A stretch of 64,000 bases of DNA from an uncultured Phycisphaerales bacterium (GTDB lineage: Bacteria > Planctomycetota > Phycisphaerae > SM23-33). The notes beneath the pieces were generated by a model that was not told the origin of the DNA, made no database searches, and saw only the letters and a program-made list of their open reading frames with translations. Location of the stretch: positions 783 to 64,782 of the forward strand of contig CBDUQP010000002.1 of the NCBI GenBank assembly GCA_965369385.1, given 5' to 3'. Numbering within the stretch: the stretch's first letter is position 1; each line of letters begins with the position of its first letter. The position numbers and the translations under genes were made by a program. Positions 8,334-43,199 of the stretch are shown one piece after another.

Positions 8334-8719
8334 GGAGTCTGACATGAATGGCACTGCCGTCCGTTTTGGCCGTTCTTTGCCGTTCGGGCCGGAGGTCCGA
8401 TGGGCAGTAAGCCGGGCGGTGACCGAAGGGAACCCCCGGAACCGGATCGGACCCCCCAATATCAGAACCCCGCAAGGGGTGGCGAGAGAAGCTTCACAGC
8501 GGGTTGGATGCCTGATAACTGGGCAAATTTTGTGCCAATTGTTCGTGTCACTTCGCAGGATGGCGTCTCCCCCCGGCCCTTCGGGACGGGGAGTTATTTG
8601 TCGCGTATCCGGGGGCTGCGCCGCGACTTACGTCGCAGCTTACCCCCGGCTAACCGCCCATCGGACCTTCGGCCCGAACGGCAAGAAACACGGACGGCAG
8701 CGCCATTGGAGTCTGACAT
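8334..8719. mobile_element. MITE-like non-autonomous element (core 8346-8707, 362 bp) with ~65-bp imperfect terminal inverted repeats, flanked by a perfect 12-bp direct repeat GGAGTCTGACAT (8334-8345 and 8708-8719)
   Basis: Left end GAATGGCACTGCCGTCCGTTTTGGCCGTTCTTTGCCGTTCGGGCCGGAGGTCCGATGGGCAG. The reverse complement of the right end is AATGGCGCTGCCGTCCGTGTTTCTTGCCGTTCGGGCCGAAGGTCCGATGGGCGG. The 12-bp direct repeat sits immediately outside both ends. The interior has no credible ORF and is GC-rich and hairpin-rich. Confidence 0.7.
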
Positions 8720-10501
8720 ATGTCTGATACCACGAAATCCGGAGTGCACTTCCTTTGGTTGCCTATCCTTGCATTCTGCGTGATGGTGAGCCAAGCGTCG
8801 GCCGCTGAATTGCGATTCGGACTGACTGCGGACAATAAGATATGCTACACCGTCGAGTCAGGGGATAAGCTGGAAGTCCTGCAGAACTTCGACGGACGTC
8901 TGAGTTTCATGGGCGATGCCGGGAAGGGTATGCAATGCCTCTTGCGAGATGGTTCAAAAACGCCAAGCGGGAAGATTAGAGTTGGAGGCATAATCGTCAA
9001 GACCGTCGAAGGCCAGGCCAAAGCCCAAGTCAAGATCTTTGTCATCGAAGACGTTTCGAAGAAATACATATCCGGAAGAACCGATTACATAGGACTCGGC
9101 GAACTGGCAAAGGTGCCCTGCCCCCTTCAAAGTTATCAGTACGCGATCACGGAGAACAATGAACTGATCCTGGCCAGGCCGATCCCGGTATTGGCGGCGG
9201 CCCGAGTCCTGAAGGATTTCACTCGCGGGTCTGTGCTGAATGACAAGTTAACCGCTAATCATTTCATGAATGGCAAGTTCGCGATGGTTTCGGGGAAGAT
9301 ATTGCCTGATGGTCGAATTCGTCTACCCGGCAAGCAACCCGCAACTGGCCGGCCGCAGGTTGCCCGGAAAAACGGGAAAACGAAGTTACGAACGGTTATA
9401 CCGTCCAAGGGGCCCGGCATATGGGTGACCGCCATCGGACACTACGGCCAGGCCAAAGATTCGGACGTCATCGTCTACGTGTTAACGGATACGGAATTCG
9501 CCCGGTACGAGAAGAAGCAGACCCCGCTGCGACGTGGCGAAAAAGCGCCGCTGATGCTTCGTAACCTGAAGCCCGGCAGATATCATGTCGGCGTGGAGCA
9601 GCTACTGGACCCTTCCTTCATTCGGCCGAGACTGTTCAAACGACCCGCGGTGGGAGACCTGCTGGCCGGCAAGCCAACGAAAACGCAAGATCCGCTGTCT
9701 GACTACCTTGATGACCGCCCCGCAAAACGCGCTGTGGAGATTCGCGTTGTTTCCGACAGTGACAGCAAGGGCAAAACTGCTTACTATCAGATGAAGTGGT
9801 ATGTTGTCGAGGTTACGGAGAGCCACCTCGTTCCCGTGGTCTGCCTGCTTCTTCAGAAAGGGGTTCCGCTAGACAAACTGGCCGGTGAGTATCCCCGGGA
9901 GCAGCAATTCGACATCACCGCTTCCGAGGAGCTGATGCAGACATTCTGGCGCGGTATTGGCCGGTTCGGACCGGAACTGACGCCAAAGCAGCGGGAGATA
10001 ATCACGCGGCTCTTGCGGCGGGGCGGAAAGGTTTGTCTGCCTGGCGCGAGAACGCCCGCCATCGTTTCCGTTGGACCTGTGGGCAAACCACGCGCTCGGT
10101 TTGGCCTTGGCAATATCAAGCAACCTGGAAAGTCGGATCTGGTGACGCTGAATGAACCGGTTATCGTCGCCGAGTCGACGAATCGGTCCAAACCAGCTAG
10201 CTCATTACCTCGCTTCAAAGAAGAACTGAGAGGCACCAATCAGGTTCAAATCGTTAACCCCAATAAGTTCTCCGTCGAGGTACGTCTTCGCTCGGGAAAC
10301 AAGGGGGCGAATTTCACGGTAGCACCCGAACGCACCGAATCGGTCTTTGTCGGTGACGGCTGTTATGAAGTGTACTTCGTCTATTCGAATCAGCCCAAGG
10401 TGCTGTATCGTGGCGAAAGCGTAAGCCTTCATGGCAGTGGGGTGCGGATCAAACTCGTGCAAGTGGCCGGCGGTAACTACTCTATTCGTAAGGCCCAATA
10501 G
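8720..10501 (+). CDS. Secreted hypothetical protein (593 aa, no recognisable domain)
   Basis: ATG preceded by GGAG (the right-hand direct repeat of the MITE-like element) at -12. N-terminal signal peptide FLWLPILAFCVMVSQASAAE. Long uninterrupted ORF with no matches to families I recognise. Confidence 0.6.
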   Translation: MSDTTKSGVHFLWLPILAFCVMVSQASAAELRFGLTADNKICYTVESGDKLEVLQNFDGRLSFMGDAGKGMQCLLRDGSKTPSGKIRVGGIIVKTVEGQAKAQVKIFVIEDVSKKYISGRTDYIGLGELAKVPCPLQSYQYAITENNELILARPIPVLAAARVLKDFTRGSVLNDKLTANHFMNGKFAMVSGKILPDGRIRLPGKQPATGRPQVARKNGKTKLRTVIPSKGPGIWVTAIGHYGQAKDSDVIVYVLTDTEFARYEKKQTPLRRGEKAPLMLRNLKPGRYHVGVEQLLDPSFIRPRLFKRPAVGDLLAGKPTKTQDPLSDYLDDRPAKRAVEIRVVSDSDSKGKTAYYQMKWYVVEVTESHLVPVVCLLLQKGVPLDKLAGEYPREQQFDITASEELMQTFWRGIGRFGPELTPKQREIITRLLRRGGKVCLPGARTPAIVSVGPVGKPRARFGLGNIKQPGKSDLVTLNEPVIVAESTNRSKPASSLPRFKEELRGTNQVQIVNPNKFSVEVRLRSGNKGANFTVAPERTESVFVGDGCYEVYFVYSNQPKVLYRGESVSLHGSGVRIKLVQVAGGNYSIRKAQ

Positions 10502-10509
10502 GCCCGTCG

Positions 10510-11548
10510 TCAGCCTTCGCTATTGGGGCCGGCGAGCGTGGAGCCTTCTTCGAATTCACCCGGCAGGATGAGCCTGGACCTGCATGGCTTGTCCGGGGAT
10601 TCCAATCGCCCCAGCAACATGGCCGCGGCCTCGTAGCCCATGTCGTAGCGGGCGTAGCTCATTCGCGTCAGTGCCGGCCAGATAACTTCCATGAAGTGAT
10701 CGCCATCGCAACACGCCAGACCGTAGTGAACGCCCGGCAGCATACCGCGTGTCTGCATAACGTCACGAGTCCAGGCGGCGTATGACGGCGATTGTGCGAT
10801 CACGGCCACATCCGGAGCAAGCAGCGATGCAAGCTCGTCGCTTCGCCCTTCGGCATCTTCGCGTCGCTGTGCGGTGAACTCTCGCACTTCGAGCCCCGCT
10901 TCGGCTGCCCCCGAGATTACACCGCGGTATCTCGCCTGGGCGGAGTAGTGAGGTTGCAGGCCACCTTCGGTGGTTTCCATATCGAACGAATACCAGAGGA
11001 TACTGCTGTAGCCCTTCTCCGCGGCCGCCAGCGCCAGCGTCCTGCCGACAGTCAACTCGTCACGCCTCACGCATCCCTCATCCCGCCAGACATTGTTGTC
11101 CAGCCAGATGCACCTGTCCTTGAACTCTTCATCCACGCGGGCGGTCACCTTATCGGACAAGACATCGAGCAGGATGATCCCATCCAGGACATGCTCCTCG
11201 AAGATGCGAGAATGCGTCCCGTCGCGGGTATCGCTGATCCTTATAAGCCCCATATACCCCTGAGCGTTGAGGCAGTCGTTAATGCCGAGAAAGAACTCGT
11301 ACGCCGGCAGGTACTTGAAGCGTTTCTTGCCAGGCTCGCTTCGGGGCAGGACGCCTATGGCCTTCGTTTTGCCGGTTCGCATCGCCCGGGCGACCAGGTT
11401 CGGGCGGTAATTCATATCCCTGGCTGCATCGAGCACCAGCTTCTTCGTCTCGTCCCGGAATCTACCGCGATTGTTCAGCACGTGGCTGACGGTCGGCAGC
11501 GAAAGGCCGGTCTTCTGGGCGAGTTGTTTTGAGTGTTACGCGGGCCAT
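10510..11548 (-). pseudogene. LacI-family transcriptional regulator interrupted by a 1-bp insertion (frameshift) in an A4 run just after the start codon
   Basis: ATG at 11548-11546 gives MARVTLKTTRPEDRPFAADRQPRAEQSR*. A -1 shift after MARVTLK restores ..QLAQKTGLSLPTVSHVLNNRGRFRDETKKLVLDAARDMNYRPNLVARAMRTGKTKAIGVL.., near-identical to the intact paralog at 17847-18887. The shift is in the CTCAAAACAACTC run (plus-strand TTTT 11527-11530). The ORF track's 10510-11481 is the internal GTG-initiated remainder. Confidence 0.7.
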
Positions 11549-17786: not shown

Positions 17787-17846
17787 CTTTGCACCTCTTC
17801 AATCTCTTTGCCTTTGCAGGACAATAGCCCGTCAAAAGCAGGCCAG

Positions 17847-18887
17847 TCAGGATTCCATCTGGGGGCCAGGAAGCGTAGACCCCTCCTCAAATTCACCGGG
17901 CAGTACCAATCTCGACCTGCACGGTTCGTTCGGTGATTCCAATCGTCCAAGCAGCATGGACGCTGCCTCGCGGCCCATGTCATAGCGGGCATAAGCCATC
18001 CGCGTCAGCGCCGGCCATGTGTCTTCCAGATAGTGATCGCCATCGCAACACGCCAGACCATAGTGAACACCCGCCAGCATACCACGCAACTCCATCACAT
18101 CACGAGTCCAGCAAGCAAACGATGGTGCATGGGTGATCACGGCCGTGTCGGATGTGATCAGCGATGCCAGCTGGTCGCCCCCGGCTTCGGCATCTTCGCG
18201 CAACTCCGAAGTGAACTCGTGCACTTCAAGCCCTGCTTGCCTGGCACCTTCCAGCACTCCACGACGCCTGGCCCCGGTAGAATAGTGACGCGGTGAACCT
18301 TCGCAAATTGAATCAAGGTCCGAGGAATACCAGACGATGCTGCGATAGCCTTTCTCCGCGGCCTTCAAAGCCAGCGTCCGGCCAACAGCTTCCTCGTCAC
18401 GCCTTATGCACCCGGCATCCCGCCAGACATTGTTGTCCAGCCAGATGCAACTTTCATTGAACTCATCGTCCACGCGTCGGCTCACATCATCCGGCAAGAC
18501 ATCAATCAGGATAATCCCGTCCACCGCATGCTCCTCGAACACGCGCGAACGCGACCCGTCGCGGACATCGCCAATCCTCACAAGACACAACACATATCCC
18601 TCGGCATCGAGACGGTCGTTTATGCCCAGAAGGAATTCGTACGCCGGGAGGTACTGAAAGAGTTTGTGCCCTGGCTCGTTGCGAGTCAGCACACCAACAG
18701 CCTTCGTCTTGCCAGTCCGCATAGCCAGGGCAGCCAAATTCGGCTTGTAGCCCAACTCACTGGCGGCAGCTAGAACCAGCTTCTTCGTCCTGTCGCGATA
18801 GTTCCCACGCTCGTTCAGCACGTGACTAACCGTCGGCTGCGAGAGCCCTGTCTTCTGGGCGATCTGCTTGAGTGTTACGCGAGCCAT
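17847..18887 (-). CDS. LacI-family transcriptional regulator (intact paralog)
   Basis: MARVTLKQIAQKTGLSQPTVSHVLNERGNYRDRTKKLVLAAASELGYKPNLAALAMRTGKTKAVGVL.. HTH plus periplasmic-binding-fold effector domain. The ORF track begins at TTG 18902. ATG 18887 with AGAGGA at -12 is the more likely start. Confidence 0.8.
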   Translation of the reverse strand: MARVTLKQIAQKTGLSQPTVSHVLNERGNYRDRTKKLVLAAASELGYKPNLAALAMRTGKTKAVGVLTRNEPGHKLFQYLPAYEFLLGINDRLDAEGYVLCLVRIGDVRDGSRSRVFEEHAVDGIILIDVLPDDVSRRVDDEFNESCIWLDNNVWRDAGCIRRDEEAVGRTLALKAAEKGYRSIVWYSSDLDSICEGSPRHYSTGARRRGVLEGARQAGLEVHEFTSELREDAEAGGDQLASLITSDTAVITHAPSFACWTRDVMELRGMLAGVHYGLACCDGDHYLEDTWPALTRMAYARYDMGREAASMLLGRLESPNEPCRSRLVLPGEFEEGSTLPGPQMES

Positions 18888-36424: not shown

Positions 36425-37191
36425 AGATACCAGGAGAGAACATGATACAGATAGACCTGTCAGGAAAGACCGCAGTAATCACCGGCGCAAGCCAGGGCCT
36501 GGGCGCAACGACGGCCCGCGTGCTGCACGAAGCCGGCGCTAACGTGGTAATCAACTACTTCGACGATGCCGAAGGTGCAAACAAGGCAAACGCGCAACAA
36601 CTCGCCGATTCGCTCGGTGATCGCGCTATGCCCATCGCTGCCGACGTTACAGACCTCCCCGCCGTCGAGGCAATGTTCCAGGCCGCTGTCGAGAAATTCG
36701 GCACTGTGGATATCGCCGTAAATAACGCTGGCATCGTCCGCGACCGCACCGCCAAGAAGATGTCCGAGCAGGACTGGCAGATGGTGATAGACACCAATCT
36801 CACCGGCGTTTTCCACGTCTGCAAGACGGCGGCAGGCACACTCGCCGAAGGCGGCCGGATAGTAAACCTGTCCTCAATCTCCGGCCAGATCGGTCTGTTC
36901 GGGCAGTGCAACTACGCTGCCGCCAAAGCGGGCGTAATGGGCCTGACGAAGGTCGTCGCCAAAGAAGTTTCCCGCCGAGGAATCACGGTGAACGCCGTTG
37001 CACCGGGCGTGGTGCTCACCGATATGGGCCTGTCGATTCCCGAAGCGGTTCGCGATGAAATGCTGAAGCTCGTCCCACTCGGCCGCTTTGGCGAGCCCCG
37101 TGAAATCTCCAACGTGATACTCTTCCTCTGCAGCGATCTGGCGTCCTACATGACCGGGCAGGTGCTGCACATAAACGGAGGTTGGATTTAA
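36367..37191 (+). CDS. SDR-family oxidoreductase (3-oxoacyl/acetoacetyl-CoA reductase-like)
   Basis: TGASQGLG cofactor motif, NNAG and YAAAK catalytic motifs. The likely start is MIQIDLSGK at 36442. Confidence 0.8.
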   Translation: MRQKASQVRVRIRPKKYQLKIPGENMIQIDLSGKTAVITGASQGLGATTARVLHEAGANVVINYFDDAEGANKANAQQLADSLGDRAMPIAADVTDLPAVEAMFQAAVEKFGTVDIAVNNAGIVRDRTAKKMSEQDWQMVIDTNLTGVFHVCKTAAGTLAEGGRIVNLSSISGQIGLFGQCNYAAAKAGVMGLTKVVAKEVSRRGITVNAVAPGVVLTDMGLSIPEAVRDEMLKLVPLGRFGEPREISNVILFLCSDLASYMTGQVLHINGGWI

Positions 37192-38741
37192 TGGCCGACC
37201 CACGCGACAGCAAGCTCTGCACCGCAGACCAAGCCGCAGCACTCGTTAAGGATGGCGACACGATAGCCTCTGGCGGATTCGTGGGCGCATGCCACCCCGA
37301 AGCGTTGTCGGCCGCCATCGAGCGAAGATTCCACAAAACCGGTCAGCCCCGGGATCTGACAGTGGCATACGCGGCCGGACAAGGCGACGGCAAGACTCGC
37401 GGCGCCAACCATTTTGCAGTTCCCGGACTGCTCAAACGCGTTATCGGCGGACACTGGGGACTGGCGCCCGCACTAGGCAAGATGGCGATAGAAGGCCAGA
37501 TCGAAGCATACAATTTCCCCCAGGGCGTTATATGCCAACTATTCCGCGACATCGCTGCCGGTCGCCCCGGATGCATCACTCACATAGGTCTCAATACTTT
37601 TGTGGATCCTGATATCGACGGCGGGCGGCTTAATTCCAACACGCCCGAAGACATGGTCGAGCGCGTTGAACTGGGCGGAAAGACGTGGCTGTGGTACAAG
37701 GCCTTCCCGATAACTATCGGCCTGATCCGCGCGACCGGCGCCGACCCTACCGGCAACATAATCATGAATCGCGAAGCCATCTTCGGAGAAGCGCTCGCGA
37801 TAGCGCAGGCCGTGCACAACTCAGGCGGAATTGTAATCGCCCAGGTCAGCGAACTGCTTGATCAGCCGATCGAGCCCCAACAGGTGATAGTGCCCGGCAT
37901 ACTGATCGACAGGATCGTGGTATCCGAGCCTCACGAGCACGAACAGACATTCGCCGAGGCGTACAATTGGCGATACTGTGCCTCGCAGCCGGCAGATGAA
38001 GCACCGGGGGGCCATCTGGAGCCGATGGAGCTGAATGAACGCAGGATCGTCTGCGCTCGCGCTTGCCAGGAAGTGCCCGAAAACGCGATTGCGAATCTCG
38101 GTATCGGCATGCCCGAAGGCATCGCCCGAATCGCCGCGGAGCAGGGTATTCTGAGCAAATTCACGCTGACGGTCGAAAGTGGACCGATTGGCGGAATACC
38201 GGCCGGCGGTATGAGCTTCGGAGCGTCCGTACACCCCGAAGCAGTGGTAGGCCAGCCAGAACAGTTCGACCTGTACGATGGCGGCGGCTTGGATTACGCA
38301 GCCCTCGGGGCCGCACAGATAGATGCACGCGGCAACGTGAACGTGTCAAAGTTCGGAACGCGCGTGCCGGGAATCGGCGGATTCGTCAATATCTCACAAA
38401 CTGCCAAACTGCTGGTTTTCTGCGGATCATTCACAGCCGGCGGTCTGAAGGTTGCAGTCGAAGGCGGCGAGTTGAAGATCATCCAGGAAGGCAAGGCACG
38501 TAAATTCGTCCAGACAGTCGAGCAAATATCATACAATGCTGATTACGCAATGCAGATCGGCCAGCAGGTGCTTTACGTAACCGAGCGTGCAGTGTTCACG
38601 CTGACGGCAGATGGATTGGAACTAACCGAAGTAGCCCCCGGCATAGATATCCAGACGCAGATTCTGGACTTGATGGACTTCAAGCCCATCATCAACAGCC
38701 CCACAACCATGGCCGCCAAGCTGTTCGCAGCCCCCAGCTAG
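37182..38741 (+). CDS. Acyl-CoA:acetate/3-ketoacid CoA-transferase, fused alpha/beta subunits (YdiF-like)
   Basis: 519 aa family I CoA-transferase with fused A and B halves. The likely start is ATG 37191 (MADPRDSK). Confidence 0.7.
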   Translation: MDLMADPRDSKLCTADQAAALVKDGDTIASGGFVGACHPEALSAAIERRFHKTGQPRDLTVAYAAGQGDGKTRGANHFAVPGLLKRVIGGHWGLAPALGKMAIEGQIEAYNFPQGVICQLFRDIAAGRPGCITHIGLNTFVDPDIDGGRLNSNTPEDMVERVELGGKTWLWYKAFPITIGLIRATGADPTGNIIMNREAIFGEALAIAQAVHNSGGIVIAQVSELLDQPIEPQQVIVPGILIDRIVVSEPHEHEQTFAEAYNWRYCASQPADEAPGGHLEPMELNERRIVCARACQEVPENAIANLGIGMPEGIARIAAEQGILSKFTLTVESGPIGGIPAGGMSFGASVHPEAVVGQPEQFDLYDGGGLDYAALGAAQIDARGNVNVSKFGTRVPGIGGFVNISQTAKLLVFCGSFTAGGLKVAVEGGELKIIQEGKARKFVQTVEQISYNADYAMQIGQQVLYVTERAVFTLTADGLELTEVAPGIDIQTQILDLMDFKPIINSPTTMAAKLFAAPS

Positions 38742-38754
38742 TGTTCAGCGATAG

Positions 38755-38937
38755 CACGCATAAGCGAAAATGGGAAGCGAAAATGGGGACTGTACCGATT
38801 CTGGGACTGTCCCCACTTTCGCGTCGTGCGCTATCTGACGCAGCATACGCTATCGACCGCAAAAGCGGGGACAGTCCCAACATCGGGACAGTCCCCGTTT
38901 TTGCTCGTCTTTGATCCGTCCCCGCCACATGTGGAGA
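38755..38937. repeat. REP/BIME-like structured repeat, copy A (two inverted ~46-bp arms, each built from GGGGAC(A/T)GTCCCC palindromes)
   Basis: Arm 1 is GCGAAAATGGGGACTGTACCGATTCTGGGACTGTCCCCACTTTCGCG at 38777-38823. Arm 2 is its near reverse complement at 38859-38904. Sits immediately after the CoA-transferase stop. Near-identical copies at 41200-41390, 42646-42756 and partially at 49641-49734. Confidence 0.8.
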
Positions 38938-39003
38938 CGGGGCGGCTGCCATTCAGAGAGAATCGCAACCGCCCCGCTCTTGTCTACCGCTATAATCAGT
39001 AAT

Positions 39004-39744
39004 CTACCTGCGGTTCCTGCGGAACATCGCCAGTGCGCCGAGGGCCAGCAAACTCAGCGTAGCCGGTTCGGGAACGGCAGCATACTCGACATGACCCGTC
39101 ACCGTAATACCTTCGGCAAAGCCATCGGTGAAACCAGCTATATCGAGTCCGAAAGTACGAGTCGAAGACGTGCCCGCAACAGCAACATCAGCTGGATTCC
39201 AGCTAACAAGATCATAATCATTTACCAGTGCCCAAGACAGACCGCTGCCGGTCAGGGCAACTGCTGCCGACGTGCCGGTATTGCCTGCCGTGGTCTCCGC
39301 CCAGTTAGCATAATCATCACCAGCAACCTGGTAAACGGTGGCGTGGCGGCCGGCATAGACGCTGATACTGTCAATCACGAGCGTCATCGGGGCAGCGCCT
39401 TGCCCTGTCAGTCCACCGGTATACTCCGCAGCAATCGTAACGCCGAAGCTGATCCTGCCGGAGTAATTGCCGGTAGTTCCATCAGCAAGTATCCCGGACC
39501 CAAATGTTGGCCCAGTACTCGACCAGAAGGCACCTACCGGACCTGGGGCAATAGTGACAGTCACATCAAAATCACCCGTTACCCCGGTGTTGGTAGCGGA
39601 CGTTTCGGTGTCACCCCAACCAGCTTCAGTACCGCACCCATACGCCAGCGAAAACGTGTTGCTGGTCAGAACTTGGGCCGACGCCCCGGTCGTCACCGCG
39701 ACCAAAACAGCCAACGCTGCTACAATTCCTAGAGTTCTCATCAT
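39004..39744 (-). CDS. PEP-CTERM domain exported protein
   Basis: Signal peptide MMRTLGIVAALAVLVAVTTGASAQ and C-terminal VPEPATLSLLALGALAMFRRNRR sorting signal. Gly/Thr-rich body. Confidence 0.8.
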   Translation of the reverse strand: MMRTLGIVAALAVLVAVTTGASAQVLTSNTFSLAYGCGTEAGWGDTETSATNTGVTGDFDVTVTIAPGPVGAFWSSTGPTFGSGILADGTTGNYSGRISFGVTIAAEYTGGLTGQGAAPMTLVIDSISVYAGRHATVYQVAGDDYANWAETTAGNTGTSAAVALTGSGLSWALVNDYDLVSWNPADVAVAGTSSTRTFGLDIAGFTDGFAEGITVTGHVEYAAVPEPATLSLLALGALAMFRRNRR

Positions 39745-40043
39745 CTTGGCTCTCCTTGAATCTCCGTCTACATTTGATTCTTGTCAGTCAATCAATTCTT
39801 CACCGCTCCCACATGACACCTTGACCTACCCAACCTGGAGCCTCACTTTTCCGTCTTGACGCAAGTCGATTTGGTGTTGTTCGCAGCTCTAATCGAGTGA
39901 CCTGATGCCGGGCACCCTGCCCGACACCACATACGATACCACCGATTCTGGTATTGTCAAGGTCTTAAATAGGATTATCTCTTGGATGTATTGGATATTG
40001 TGGTATATTAAGACTGTGACGAAGTTGTTGATGTATCCGCTAC

Positions 40044-41195
40044 GTGGTAGTAGATTGCATTACTGAAGAAGCGAATTGCAGCACTGATGTACGGCGAATT
40101 CATAGGATTATGAGAAGAATACCGGCACAAACCGACCTTGCAAACGACCTTGCCAATGCCCTGCTACAGGACGTTCGTGACAGGGGATTGCAAGAGGGCG
40201 ACCGCTATTACACCACGGAAGAAGCCGGCCATAAGTTCTCCGTTTGCAAAGAAACGGCAAGAAAGGCCATGAAAATACTGGCCGGACGCGACGTGCTGGT
40301 GCGCCTCCGGCGGAGGGGAACTTTCGTGGGCTCGATGGCCGCAGCCAGACCGCAGCCCAAAGTCGCCCGAAGGCGGCTTCTCGTGCTGACACCGCCTGTC
40401 GTTTGCAGTTCCCCACAACTCGAATTCAGTCAGATTCCGCATTTTCTGGATCAGGCGATGAACAACATCTTCATCCAGAGCCATATCCTCCCTCTGGATG
40501 CGGACGTATCGATTATTCGGGAAATGGTCGACAACGTCAGAAACACCGGCCATCTTGACGGGATAGTCAGCGGTTCCCGCACGCGCGAGGTGCATGATTA
40601 TATGACCTCACTTGATGTCCCGGCGGTGGTTCTGGGCACGCTGGATTCGGGACAGACCGACCTGTCATCGCTGGACCTGGATTACAATCAAGCCGGTAGA
40701 CTGCTGGCGGAATATGTGATTGGACTGGGACACACCCACGTAATCGCCCAGTTGGCCAATAATTTTCGCGGGGATCATCACTTCGCCGACAGCATCGCCG
40801 ACGTTATGTCGGCAGCTCATTTACCGCCGAGTTCCCTGAGAGTAAGAACCTTCTGCGGTGATCTTGAAACCGTCCGTGCCAATTTCAGAGACCTGCTGAG
40901 CAATAACAACCGCCCGACAGCCATCATAACGCGCGGCCGGGCGCTGGCGGATACTGCGGCGGCGGCAGCCGATGACGTGGGGCTTTGCATCAGCAAGGAT
41001 ATCGAGATCGTCTGGTCGGGAAGCGCACTGAAAGTCGAAGAGTATTCCCCTTACGTCAACGTCCAGTCAAAACTCGGCATGGACGAGATAGCGTCGATGG
41101 TAGCGAAGATGCTCGAAGACCAGAGAGAGGGCAGAGCGCTTGAGGAAAAACACGTCTTCATCCCCGCCGAACTGTGCATGCCCTCGGTAAATTAG
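40044..41195 (+). CDS. GntR-type HTH regulator with PBP-like effector domain
   Basis: wHTH (..YYTTEEAGHKFSVCKETARKAMKILAGRDVLVRLRRRGTFV..) followed by a LacI/PBP-like domain. The true start may be an internal Met (~40108). Confidence 0.6.
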   Translation: MVVDCITEEANCSTDVRRIHRIMRRIPAQTDLANDLANALLQDVRDRGLQEGDRYYTTEEAGHKFSVCKETARKAMKILAGRDVLVRLRRRGTFVGSMAAARPQPKVARRRLLVLTPPVVCSSPQLEFSQIPHFLDQAMNNIFIQSHILPLDADVSIIREMVDNVRNTGHLDGIVSGSRTREVHDYMTSLDVPAVVLGTLDSGQTDLSSLDLDYNQAGRLLAEYVIGLGHTHVIAQLANNFRGDHHFADSIADVMSAAHLPPSSLRVRTFCGDLETVRANFRDLLSNNNRPTAIITRGRALADTAAAAADDVGLCISKDIEIVWSGSALKVEEYSPYVNVQSKLGMDEIASMVAKMLEDQREGRALEEKHVFIPAELCMPSVN

Positions 41196-41199
41196 GCCC

Positions 41200-41390
41200 C
41201 TCGCGGTGGCTCGCATGTGCGAAAATGGGAAGCGAAAATGGGGACTGTACCGATTCTGGGACTGTCCCCACTTTCGCGTCATACGCTATCTGACGCAACA
41301 TAGGTTATCGACCGCAAAAACGGGGACAGTCCCAGAATCGGTACAGTCCCCGTTTTTGCTCGTCTTTGATCCGTCCCCGCCACATGTGGC
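41200..41390. repeat. REP/BIME-like structured repeat, copy B (most complete copy)
   Basis: TCGCGGTGGCTCGCATGTGCG-AAAATGGGAAGCGAAAATGGGGACTGTACCGATTCTGGGACTGTCCCCACTTTCGCG...GCAAAAACGGGGACAGTCCCAGAATCGGTACAGTCCCCGTTTTTGC-TCGTCTTTGATCCGTCCCCGCCACATGTGGC. Starts 5 bp after the regulator stop codon. Confidence 0.8.
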
Positions 41391-41583
41391 ATTTTTATGT
41401 TCAAACCTGTGCCAAAGCATGGAAAAATGATCCCTCAGAGCGCAAGATATGCATCGTTCAGATGGTTTGGCACAATGGGCCATGCGAATCCGTCTGGCAG
41501 ACCGGCAACCGGTGACAGAGCGTCGCCGAAGACCCGGAAAAATCCCGGACAAGCTACCAGGCCCAGATACAGGATAGAATAAC

Positions 41584-42603
41584 GTGACTACTCCTCTTCG
41601 TTTTGCGTTCGTTGGTTTCAGACATGGACACATCATGGCCCTGCTGGCGGCCGTCAAGGAACACGCCTGCTGCGAGCTGGTTGCCTGCTGCGAGGAAGAT
41701 GTTGAAAACTCGCTCGTGAATGACAACATCGAAATAACCCACACCGATTACGACAGGATGCTCGCCGAAGTTGACTGCGATGTGATAGCCGTGGGCGACT
41801 ACTACGAAAAGCGCGGCGCGATCATTATCAGTGCACTGAAAGCAGGCAAGCACGTGATCGCAGACAAACCGATCTGCACAACGCTTGATGAACTGGCCAC
41901 GATAGAGAACCTCTCCAAAGCGAAACAGCTTTCGGTCGGCTGCCAGCTTGACCTCCGCGGCGTGGGCTGGTGCCGCACCATGCGCACCATGGTCAACGAA
42001 GGCAAAATCGGCGAAGTTCACACCATCACATTCTCCGGCCAGCATCCCCTGGCTGTGGGCGAGCGTCCCGACTGGTACTTCCAGGACAATTGCCACGGCG
42101 GAACCATCAACGATATCGCCATCCACGGTATTGACCTGATACCCTGGATGACCGGACGAAAGATTGTGGAAGTGGTGGCAGCACGCGGCTGGAATGCACG
42201 ATGCAAAGCGAACAAGAGCTTCCAGGACGGCGCTCAACTGATGCTGCGTCTGGATAACGATGGCGGTGTGCTGGCAGATGTATCGTACCTGAAGCCCGAA
42301 AAATGCACTGCGAACCTCCAGCAGTACTGGCGTTTCACCGTCCACGGCAGCGGTGGCATGATGGAAGGTTACTATGGATGTGACTCAATCGAGTACGTGA
42401 GCATGGAAGATGAAGGCGTCACAACGATCCCGTGCGAACCTGACGCCGTCGCAGCCTACCTCAACGATTTCCTCAAGGAAATAGCAGGCGAAACCCCAGA
42501 CGCTATCGATCTGACAACCGAGCAGGTGATAGAGTCGGCGAAGATCACGCTGCTGACGCAGAAGGCAGCCGATGAAGGCTGCTGCAACTTGTCTTGCAAG
42601 TAA
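41584..42603 (+). CDS. Gfo/Idh/MocA-family oxidoreductase
   Basis: Rossmann N-terminus (FAFVGFRHGHI..), EKP-like ADKPICT motif. 339 aa. Confidence 0.75.
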   Translation: MTTPLRFAFVGFRHGHIMALLAAVKEHACCELVACCEEDVENSLVNDNIEITHTDYDRMLAEVDCDVIAVGDYYEKRGAIIISALKAGKHVIADKPICTTLDELATIENLSKAKQLSVGCQLDLRGVGWCRTMRTMVNEGKIGEVHTITFSGQHPLAVGERPDWYFQDNCHGGTINDIAIHGIDLIPWMTGRKIVEVVAARGWNARCKANKSFQDGAQLMLRLDNDGGVLADVSYLKPEKCTANLQQYWRFTVHGSGGMMEGYYGCDSIEYVSMEDEGVTTIPCEPDAVAAYLNDFLKEIAGETPDAIDLTTEQVIESAKITLLTQKAADEGCCNLSCK

Positions 42604-42645
42604 CGCGGATGACACGTCAGCGCGACAAGCGGTGACGCACAATCG

Positions 42646-42756
42646 AGCGAAAATGGGGACTGTCCCGTCGTTGGGGACTGTCCCCACTTTCGCGGCGTAC
42701 GCTATCTACCGCAAAAGCGGGGACAGTCCCAGAATCGGTACAGTCCCCGTTTTTGC
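42646..42756. repeat. REP/BIME-like structured repeat, copy C (shorter spacer, variant arm 1)
   Basis: GCGAAAATGGGGACTGTCCCGTCGTTGGGGACTGTCCCCACTTTCGCG...GCAAAAGCGGGGACAGTCCCAGAATCGGTACAGTCCCCGTTTTTGC. The spacer is shortened, consistent with a deletion between the GCTATC direct repeats. Lies after the oxidoreductase stop. Confidence 0.8.
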
Positions 42757-42974
42757 TGCCTGACAACGGCACCTCCACTTCTAATCCGGGAATACTACAA
42801 TTCTTCAATATCCACTATTCTCTGTTCCTCGCGGGCAACATCGACCAGAAAACCTACGAGATGCCCGTAGATGGAATCTTCCAGGAAGGTAGCCGAAATC
42901 GATGGTGCCTGGCCGCGAATGACCTGCATGAAATCATTCACCACGATGGTGTTCCGCTGAAGCGATGTGAAAAA

Positions 42975-43199
42975 TCAGTCGGCCTTCCGCATATGCCATG
43001 CCCGTTTGATGGCGTCTGCGAGCTTAACCTTCGTCACATGGTTGCGATAGCTCATCTGGACGTGATCCACGTCCTGGAGCAATCCCAAATCATCTGGAAC
43101 ATAAGTCGCTATTCTTGAAATACTTAAAGCCTTCTCGCTTCGATCTACCGTCATACTGGGCTGCTCTGCCATCACTTTTCCTCTCTCTGCTATGGTCAA
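42975..43199 (-). CDS. Small hypothetical protein (74 aa)
   Basis: ORF MTIAERGKVMAEQPSMTVDRSEKALSISRIATYVPDDLGLLQDVDHVQMSYRNHVTKVKLADAIKRAWHMRKAD. A second ~50-aa reading frame follows on the same strand (42972-42810, ..RNTIVVNDFMQVIRGQAPSISATFLEDSIYGHLVGFLVDVAREEQRIVDIEEL), directly after its stop codon. No family assignment possible. Confidence 0.3.
   Translation of the reverse strand: MTIAERGKVMAEQPSMTVDRSEKALSISRIATYVPDDLGLLQDVDHVQMSYRNHVTKVKLADAIKRAWHMRKAD

Follow-up and report, generated by a model that had tools for sequence, protein, structure and literature searches.

Three hairpin-forming repeats in a 64-kb bacterial DNA segment are probably non-autonomous mobile elements of the TIRYT-flanking repeat class

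What kind of element leaves three long, nearly identical hairpin sequences directly behind the genes of one 4-kb region? The question is raised by a 64-kb stretch of DNA from an uncultured Phycisphaerales bacterium (contig CBDUQP010000002.1, positions 783 to 64,782; hereinafter the window). An earlier note on these letters had described the three sequences, here designated copies A, B and C, as a novel family organised like repetitive extragenic palindromes (REP) and bacterial interspersed mosaic elements (BIME). We consider it likely that A, B and C are non-autonomous, hairpin-forming mobile elements, similar to REPINs and BIMEs and belonging to the repeat class that flanks TIRYT genes. TIRYTs are Y1 HUH endonucleases of subclass 2.1 in the superfamily of IS200 and the REP-associated tyrosine transposases (RAYTs).

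The whole composite elements A (38748..38937) and B (41203..41392) align without gaps over 187 nt (38748-38934 and 41203-41389) at 93% identity in the repeat-finder output, and their right-hand 67 nt are 90-91% identical across all three copies, including the short variant C (42644..42760; aligned part 42691-42757). Every copy is built from two inverted arms of about 46-48 nt, 85-90% complementary to each other, around a spacer of 34 nt in A and B and 13 nt in C; the spacer contains the hexamer GCTATC (GTTATC at one place) twice in A and B and once in C. Copy A shows the complete layout on the plus strand: a truncated extra half-site, GCGAAAATGGGAA, read from the sequence at 38764..38776; a left arm, GCGAAAAT-GGGGACTGTACC-gattct-GGGACTGTCCCC-ACTTTCGC, at 38776..38823; the spacer at 38824..38857; a right arm, the inverted left arm, at 38858..38905; and a right terminal module, CGTCTTTGATCCGTCCCCGCCACATGTGG, at 38906..38934, whose minus strand reads GGGGACGGATC, a core type found beside Firmicutes-type TIRYT genes. 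Copy B carries the same truncated half-site (41219-41231), a left arm identical to that of A (41231..41278) and a right arm at 41313..41360, and the arms of copy C lie at 42646..42695 and 42709..42757. The right-hand module GTCTTTGATCCGTCCCCGCCACATGTGG is common to A and B. The left terminal module is clear in B and diverged in A, as the earlier note had it, and a faint trace of it can also be seen in C (GCGGTGACGCACA), where terminal modules are otherwise not clear.

Within the window, these repeats are confined to three places. The core 12-mer GGGGACWGTCCC, with at most one mismatch, is matched 20 times in the 64 kb against 0.54 expected, and all matches fall inside A, B and C. A repeat search over the whole window found no fourth copy and no duplicated DNA between the copies; since the DNA between them is unrepeated, the copies do not descend from a tandem or segmental duplication, a possibility that the earlier note had raised for a tandem one. 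All three copies are intergenic and begin 7-41 nt 3′ of a stop codon. Copy A starts 7 nt past the stop of a CoA-transferase gene (37182-38741, plus strand), in a convergent intergenic region that ends at the stop of a minus-strand PEP-CTERM protein gene (39004-39744). Copy B starts 8 nt past the stop of a gene for a GntR-type regulator with a periplasmic-binding domain (40044-41195, plus strand) and lies 190 nt before the start of a Gfo/Idh/MocA oxidoreductase gene (41584-42603, plus strand), and the first arm of copy C lies 43 nt past the stop of that gene, the copy ending about 37 nt short of the end (~42797) of a minus-strand open reading frame (ORF). The four genes were assigned by Pfam. 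Four short ORFs with 'GTVP' peptides overlap the repeats, without a Pfam match in those tested, and the repeats explain these spurious ORFs in the annotation. The number and similarity of the copies, their two-armed build and their placement behind genes thus stand as first described.

The arms follow the plan GCGAAAAY-GGGGACWGTMCC-(6-7 nt)-GGKACWGTCCCC-RYTTTCGC, an imperfect hairpin in which GCGAAAAY and RYTTTCGC form the foot and two cores of the GGGGACWGTCCCC type form the top. An arm is not a simple palindrome, since both cores point the same way: both have a central T in the left arm of A and a central A (the GGGGACAG orientation) in its right arm. The T.T or A.A pair at the core centres and a GTACC/GGGAC asymmetry are conserved irregularities of the arm. 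As single-stranded DNA, the arms are predicted to fold into 20-bp imperfect hairpins of -14 to -21 kcal/mol with z-scores of -6 to -8 (-17.4 kcal/mol, z -7.0, for the left and -19.5 kcal/mol, z -8.3, for the right arm of A). Whole copies are predicted to fold as long hairpins as well: A forms a single one of -55 kcal/mol (z -7.2), B reaches -61.7 kcal/mol (z -10.5) with its terminal CATGTG boxes also paired, and C lies at -38 to -41 kcal/mol (-38.5, z -8.5). Predicted values for RNA are proportionally lower than for DNA, at -26 to -36 kcal/mol for the arms. The likeness to REP and BIME organisation is borne out by paired inverted arms and by copies that fold as units.

The irregularities of the arm point to one strand. 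Of 118 matches, 100 show one and the same base at the centre of both cores of an arm (71 vs 19 under a looser definition). On the central-T strand, stem positions 7-8 hold 15 A.C or C.A mismatches and few G.T pairs, and those A.C mismatches read as G.T wobbles on the GGGGACAG strand. Shared core centres together with wobble pairs on the GGGGACAG strand favour a single folded strand as the functional form. The Y1 HUH enzymes of IS608 and of the Escherichia coli TnpA-REP system read a folded single strand in one orientation.

To which family does such an arm belong? GGGGACAG occurs in every arm on one strand or the other and fits GGGGWSAS (GGGG[AT][CG]A[CG]), the sequence common to the inverted repeats that flank TIRYT genes, a group of RAYT-like genes (Di Nocera et al. 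2013, PMC3733652). Some TIRYT repeats are self-complementary, and they occur in families of single, dimeric or grouped copies (PMC3733652). TIRYTs have been equated with TnpA-REP subclass 2.1, whose members are long proteins with a C-terminal helix-turn-helix (HTH) or Bac_DnaA_C-like tail present in 14.9% of strains and whose group 2.1.2 is distributed patchily over phyla, suggesting horizontal transfer (Quentin et al. 2018, PMC6006769). The view that the family is novel and unrelated to any known one does not hold: its core fits the published motif (PMC3733652, PMC6006769).

Nor is the family specific to its host. One genome per species was scanned for the half-site GGKACWGTCCCCRYTTTYGC, which gave at least 111 loci, with about 17 matches expected by chance if uniform base composition is assumed. 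In 84 of the 111 loci listed, the half-site GCRAAARYGGGGACWGTMCC lies within a palindrome or paired arms (a full palindrome, or a second core no more than 90 nt away); the remaining 27 resemble chance matches, some clearly coding. At least 50 genomes contribute to the 84 loci, and the same 20-mer is present in at least 15 phyla. Among the matches listed, the module is found in 12 genomes of Planctomycetota, five of WOR-3, four each of Bacillota, Acidobacteriota and Alphaproteobacteria and three of Hydrogenedentota, with further carriers in Nitrospirota, Armatimonadota, Omnitrophota, Elusimicrobiota, Paceibacterota, Spirochaetota and other groups; at least nine of these loci are in one Bacillota genome and at least five in WOR-3 UBA2258. 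Genomes rich in the motif are JBMNFA01 (Bacillota), DDXO01 (WOR-3 UBA2258), JAFGRF01, CAWGAJ01 and JBGAQP01. Megabase contigs and one closed chromosome are among the carriers, so mis-binning does not explain the spread.

Conservation between distant lineages extends well beyond the half-site. The left arm of copy B is 87-89% identical over 45-46 nt to arms in WOR-3 and in one IMG/VR contig, and the likeness includes the asymmetric GTACC/GGGAC inner halves, with the 6-nt loop alone differing. Architectures built on the module vary: the Bacillota genome has a single 29-nt perfect palindrome, WOR-3 arms have a small G+C hairpin as their loop, and most Planctomycetota have an 'inside-out' arm, in which the two cores enclose the feet (core-ATTTTCGC-x-GCGAAAAT-core; for example L016 2936-2980, L035, L077 and L107). 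The arms of the window are of the WOR-3/Hydrogenedentota type, unlike those of most planctomycete genomes. The spacer and terminal modules of A and B have no counterpart in any other sampled genome.

Clustering of the ORFs across the 111 listed loci revealed no ordinary gene family enriched beside the motif; that no gene family travels with the motif fits dispersed elements. Crude ORF calling and the span of open frames gave no discrimination as a test for intergenic position, because the genomes are rich in G+C and the palindromes lack stop codons, and were replaced by a rough codon-phase (GC3) test. The same phase was found on both sides of 18 of 36 elements as compared with 368 of 448 random sites, a difference that indicates enrichment of the elements at gene boundaries. 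Some copies in other genomes do sit in frame within genes. The only match in the viral contig collection (L197, IMGVR_UViG_3300032053_000406, 9192-9252) is a full 46-nt arm lying in frame within a 434-aa ORF with a DPPY motif, to which it adds ...PKTGTVPLGGLSPFSQ...; judged by its motif, this ORF apparently encodes a DNA methyltransferase.

Other searches delimit the distribution. No similarity to copy B was found in plasmids and cultured phages, and no exact arm 30-mer in JGI metagenome contigs. The nearest relative (L206; hydrogenase 75% identical) lacks synteny downstream and shows no motif over 21.8 kb. Rfam gave no match at gathering score; sub-threshold matches to eukaryotic miRNA hairpins in a permissive Rfam search (22-33 bits against cut-offs of 80-90) were treated as chance. 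A full-text literature search with the 12-13-nt core returned matches to unrelated eukaryotic primers only.

A link to RAYT-type transposases, which the earlier note had suggested, emerges from these other genomes. Two of the 111 loci listed have a Y1_Tnp gene directly at the motif, as found by motif search combined with a homologue profile. In a Bacillota genome (L055), about 100 nt separate the palindrome TGCAAAAATGGGGACAGTCCCCGTTTTTGCA from the start of a downstream gene whose PF01797 product (E 1.4e-18) NCBI names 'REP-associated tyrosine transposase'. In a Paceibacterota metagenome-assembled genome (L025, DASWIZ010000017.1, 2858-3583), the palindrome lies in frame in a RAYT-type gene with an HYH motif, where it lengthens the stretch from the N-terminal strand to the HUH motif by about 18 residues (...AKAGTVPAFGE...). 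In-frame insertions of REPs into genes, transposase genes included, are known for another subclass. In the clade nearest the L055 protein (P0001-P0006, 57-100% identity), all six genes have palindromes with a GGGACWGTCCC core on the flanks present, and their lower stems are lineage-specific (GAAACAGT/ACTGTTTC; GCAACAAAAT/ATTTTGTTGC; CCGAAC/GTTCGG). Several contigs of this clade break off exactly at the palindrome, as expected for a multi-copy repeat.

The association persists in a wider set of 80 loci from metagenome contigs, found with an alignment of the clade proteins. GGGGAC is present at -110 to -40 upstream of 47 of 72 relatives and GTCCCC at +5 to +60 downstream of 45 of 67, far above a background in which either hexamer occurs in 2.8% of windows, and the flanking hexamers are oppositely oriented on the two sides of the transposase genes. 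The usual form in this set, xxxCAAGGGGACGGTTCTCTTGxxx, has a 5-bp top and a 3-nt loop as in GGGGA-CWG-TCCCC, and its G.T pairs are restricted to a single strand. The six stem positions beside the core are paired in 73-88% of cases, as compared with 39-62% for halves mixed between loci, and 47 distinct stems occur in 52 sequences. Stems that pair and yet vary indicate a hairpin kept by compensatory change, so that outside the core it is the fold and not the sequence that is conserved. The transposases found are 250-260 aa long and contain HVH and YIHQNP motifs as well as a segment, 'RQIARVTG', that is conserved at the C-terminus; their C-terminal HTH matches are sub-threshold only (HTH_23/28/38/24, E 0.0008-0.07).

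Several features of these transposase loci deserve mention in their own right. Between the upstream hairpin and the start codon, the genes of the P0001-P0006 clade share CGAACAT-N3-(A/G)TT(C/T), located at L112 60-80, L198 ~640, L199 ~2560, L055 ~2150, L207 ~125 and L208 ~140. This box lies within one mismatch of CGAACATATGTTCG, which we take to be the Gram-positive LexA (Cheo) box, and by this resemblance hints at putative SOS control of the clade transposases. In many Firmicutes-type relatives (L117-L196), the upstream hairpin merges at its 3′ half with a TTGACA located about 60 nt ahead of the start codon, and a -35-like box thus appears to be embedded in the hairpin. One planctomycete locus (L204) has seven tandem copies of CCGGCGAAGAAAAGGTG upstream of its transposase gene.

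How closely do the window repeats resemble systems already described? Like the terminal inverted repeats of TIRtrons, repeats of this family have a core that fits GGGGWSAS, flank Y1 transposases in inverted orientation at roughly fixed distances, occur as single, dimeric and clustered copies, some self-complementary, and are patchy across phyla; the transposases, candidate members of subclass 2.1, match it in length and motifs and show weak HTH-like signals in the C-terminal tail. Unlike in those repeats, the unit is much longer than 8 nt, with a 20-nt half-site and a 46-nt double-core arm conserved at 87-89% between phyla, and each flank is a hairpin maintained by compensatory changes, whereas none was reported for subclass 2.1 in the 2018 survey. 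With enterobacterial and Pseudomonas REPs, BIMEs and REPINs and their RAYTs (TnpA-REP subclasses 2.2 and 2.5; Nunvar 2010; Bertels and Rainey 2011, PMC3116915; Ton-Hoang/Messing 2012, PMC3479197), the repeats share imperfect palindromes that are mostly extragenic and often 3′ of stop codons, inverted doublets that form long hairpins, mosaics with other modules, and a Y1 HUH enzyme gene flanked by the same palindromes, here in other genomes. They differ in having another transposase subclass, conservation across phyla instead of species-specific sequence, two directly oriented cores per arm and no unpaired GTAG/CGTC tag at the foot: in 179 half-sites, no information content is seen at the 14 positions 5′ of the foot, and CGTC, found 3′ of the left arm in A and B, is absent there from C. 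IS200/IS605 elements (IS608, ISDra2) have the same Y1 HUH fold (PF01797) and imperfect subterminal hairpins recognised on one strand, and likewise neither terminal inverted repeats of the DDE type nor target duplications; their end hairpins, however, are both on the same strand and their transposase is carried by the element, whereas the flanks here are inverted relative to each other and the window copies have no gene. The two inverted arms of a window copy resemble the ends, left and right, of a transposase unit after loss of the gene. Unit length and cross-phylum conservation, the double-core arm and compensatory hairpins at subclass-2.1-type genes seem to go beyond the published accounts cited here.

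Several points weigh against placing A, B and C among mobile elements of the TIRYT-flanking class. They are only three copies, all within 4 kb of the 64-kb window, and no Y1 transposase gene was found within the window, so the cognate enzyme of this host is a presumed one. We know of no TIRYT biochemically shown to move such repeats. The direct transposase link of the exact motif lies in Bacillota-like genomes and not in Planctomycetota. A large planctomycete family was retrieved with the sequence of the Rhodopirellula baltica TIRYT rba2408 (PMC3733652 supplement) as query, and its members L202, L203 and L204/L205 are flanked by a different palindrome, GAAAAGGTGTC...GACACCTTTT; this is the sole planctomycete TIRYT group examined, and its repeats have the same layout as those of the window (A-run, core, T-run). 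Finally, REP-like secondary structures beside subclass 2.1 genes were reported to be absent (PMC6006769), which is at odds with the hairpins described here.

Among the alternatives, the strongest, though in our judgement unlikely, is that the copies are host terminators or mRNA 3′-end stabilisers that resemble one another through selection for one good hairpin and not through transposition. All three lie just 3′ of stop codons, two of them between convergent genes, their arms are extremely stable as RNA, and each outer arm end carries a T-run (GTTTTTGC) that points outward on each strand, as in bidirectional terminators. A consensus terminator scan, however, flags none of the three copies, and the T-run (T5 at the outer end of each right arm) is predicted to be paired with the A-run of the foot. 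Selection for a hairpin also leaves unexplained the 93% identity over 187 nt with unpaired modules included, the same 46-nt arm in other phyla and the core on both sides of transposase genes, and some copies elsewhere lie in frame within genes. Termination may instead be a side effect of the elements.

It is distinctly improbable that the copies are miniature inverted-repeat transposable elements of a DDE-transposase insertion sequence, with the arms of about 47 nt serving as terminal inverted repeats in double-stranded cut-and-paste transposition. Two long inverted arms around a short spacer would suit such an element, as would the near-identity of A and B over about 190 nt between unrelated flanks, but no target-site duplication is found where the A/B similarity ends, the unit elsewhere is a single 29-nt perfect palindrome or a single arm and hence too small, and the transposase genes found at the motif are all of the Y1 HUH type, with no DDE gene enriched nearby. 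Still less credible are operator arrays, for example for the GntR/periplasmic-binding-type regulator encoded between A and B. The GGGACWGTCCC core forms a near-perfect dyad in the size range usual for dimeric regulators, the regulator gene lies within the cluster, and its promoter region (39941-39958) holds a weak partial match, ACCGATTCTGGTATTGTC; yet the copies lie 3′ of genes and not at promoters (only B precedes a gene, by 190 nt), the identical motif stands beside unrelated genes in at least 15 phyla with no common neighbouring regulator, and compensatory stem substitution fits a folded strand and not a fixed double-stranded site. Although structured repeats of 117-190 nt that are nearly identical and stand directly behind successive genes of a 4-kb region recall the attC sites of a chromosomal integron cassette array or of an integrase-less attC cluster, this reading can practically be set aside, given that a search reaching 40 nt from each copy found no RYYYAAC...GTTRRRY pair on either strand, that the A-B interval holds two divergent genes with their own promoter region and no promoterless cassette, and that the motif occurs in other genomes as scattered single copies and on the flanks of Y1 transposase genes.

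The structure of the copies, the kinship of the family and the company of its core with transposase genes in other lineages are observations; for A, B and C as mobile elements of the TIRYT-flanking class, we infer the following route in this host. A transposase encoded elsewhere in the genome would bind the hairpin on single-stranded DNA, most likely on the GGGGACAG strand, and would cut and rejoin the bound strand. Single, paired and clustered copies would in this way spread to tolerated sites, mainly just 3′ of stop codons. As a possible side effect, hairpins of such high stability may also end transcription or shield the 3′ ends of mRNA.

The host itself is probably a planctomycete, in agreement with the PVC-group origin proposed earlier: the nearest named relatives of its [FeFe] hydrogenase (P0121, 68-70% identity) are Planctomycetota. 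Other features of the window were noted in passing. The ACCGATTCTGGTATTGTC site matches the interior of an arm at 89%. Situated upstream of the GntR-type regulator gene, in the divergent promoter region, it shares bases with a promoter-like TTGACA...TATCGT of the minus strand and may be either the remains of a fourth copy or a coincidence. The minus-strand ORF beside copy C (42797-43199) comprises 74 aa, a single TGA and then 59 sense codons in the same frame down to ~42797, without a Pfam match, and may represent an in-frame stop or a decayed gene. A 45-nt inverted repeat (8372-8416 / 8645-8689; 89% complementary, 228 nt between the arms) lies in an intergenic region before an ORF starting at 8720 and is another structured element, unrelated in sequence to A, B and C. 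A direct repeat of about 1 kb (10509-11529 / 17846-18869; 74-80% identity) corresponds to two paralogous minus-strand genes 7.3 kb apart.

What, then, do these repeats mean for the family? Work on REP-type elements has been almost confined to Proteobacteria, in which the sequence differs from species to species; here, one hairpin module of 20-46 nt is nearly unchanged across very distant phyla and is tied to one little-studied TIRYT clade. A bolder and more tentative proposal, to which we give somewhat less than even weight, is that the double-core module GCGAAAAY-GGGGACWGTMCC-loop-GGKACWGTCCCC-RYTTTCGC represents one lineage of elements that by horizontal spread has reached at least 15 phyla (including Planctomycetota, WOR-3, Hydrogenedentota, Bacillota and a candidate-phyla-radiation genome) and a virus-like contig, its 87-89% identity over 46 nt being kept because one TIRYT clade reads its irregularities on one strand. 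If so, the module would be the most widely shared REP-like sequence known, able to insert in frame into genes. For this clade, a candidate group of subclass 2.1, no biochemically shown substrate is known, and the module together with P0001-P0006 provides a concrete oligonucleotide and protein set for binding and cleavage work. The module is also a marker for tracing the horizontal spread of such systems, and its recognition helps annotation by accounting for spurious 'GTVP' ORFs, some assembly breaks and in-frame gene insertions. For the window alone, the repeats amount to an ordinary genomic parasite with possible effects on transcript ends.

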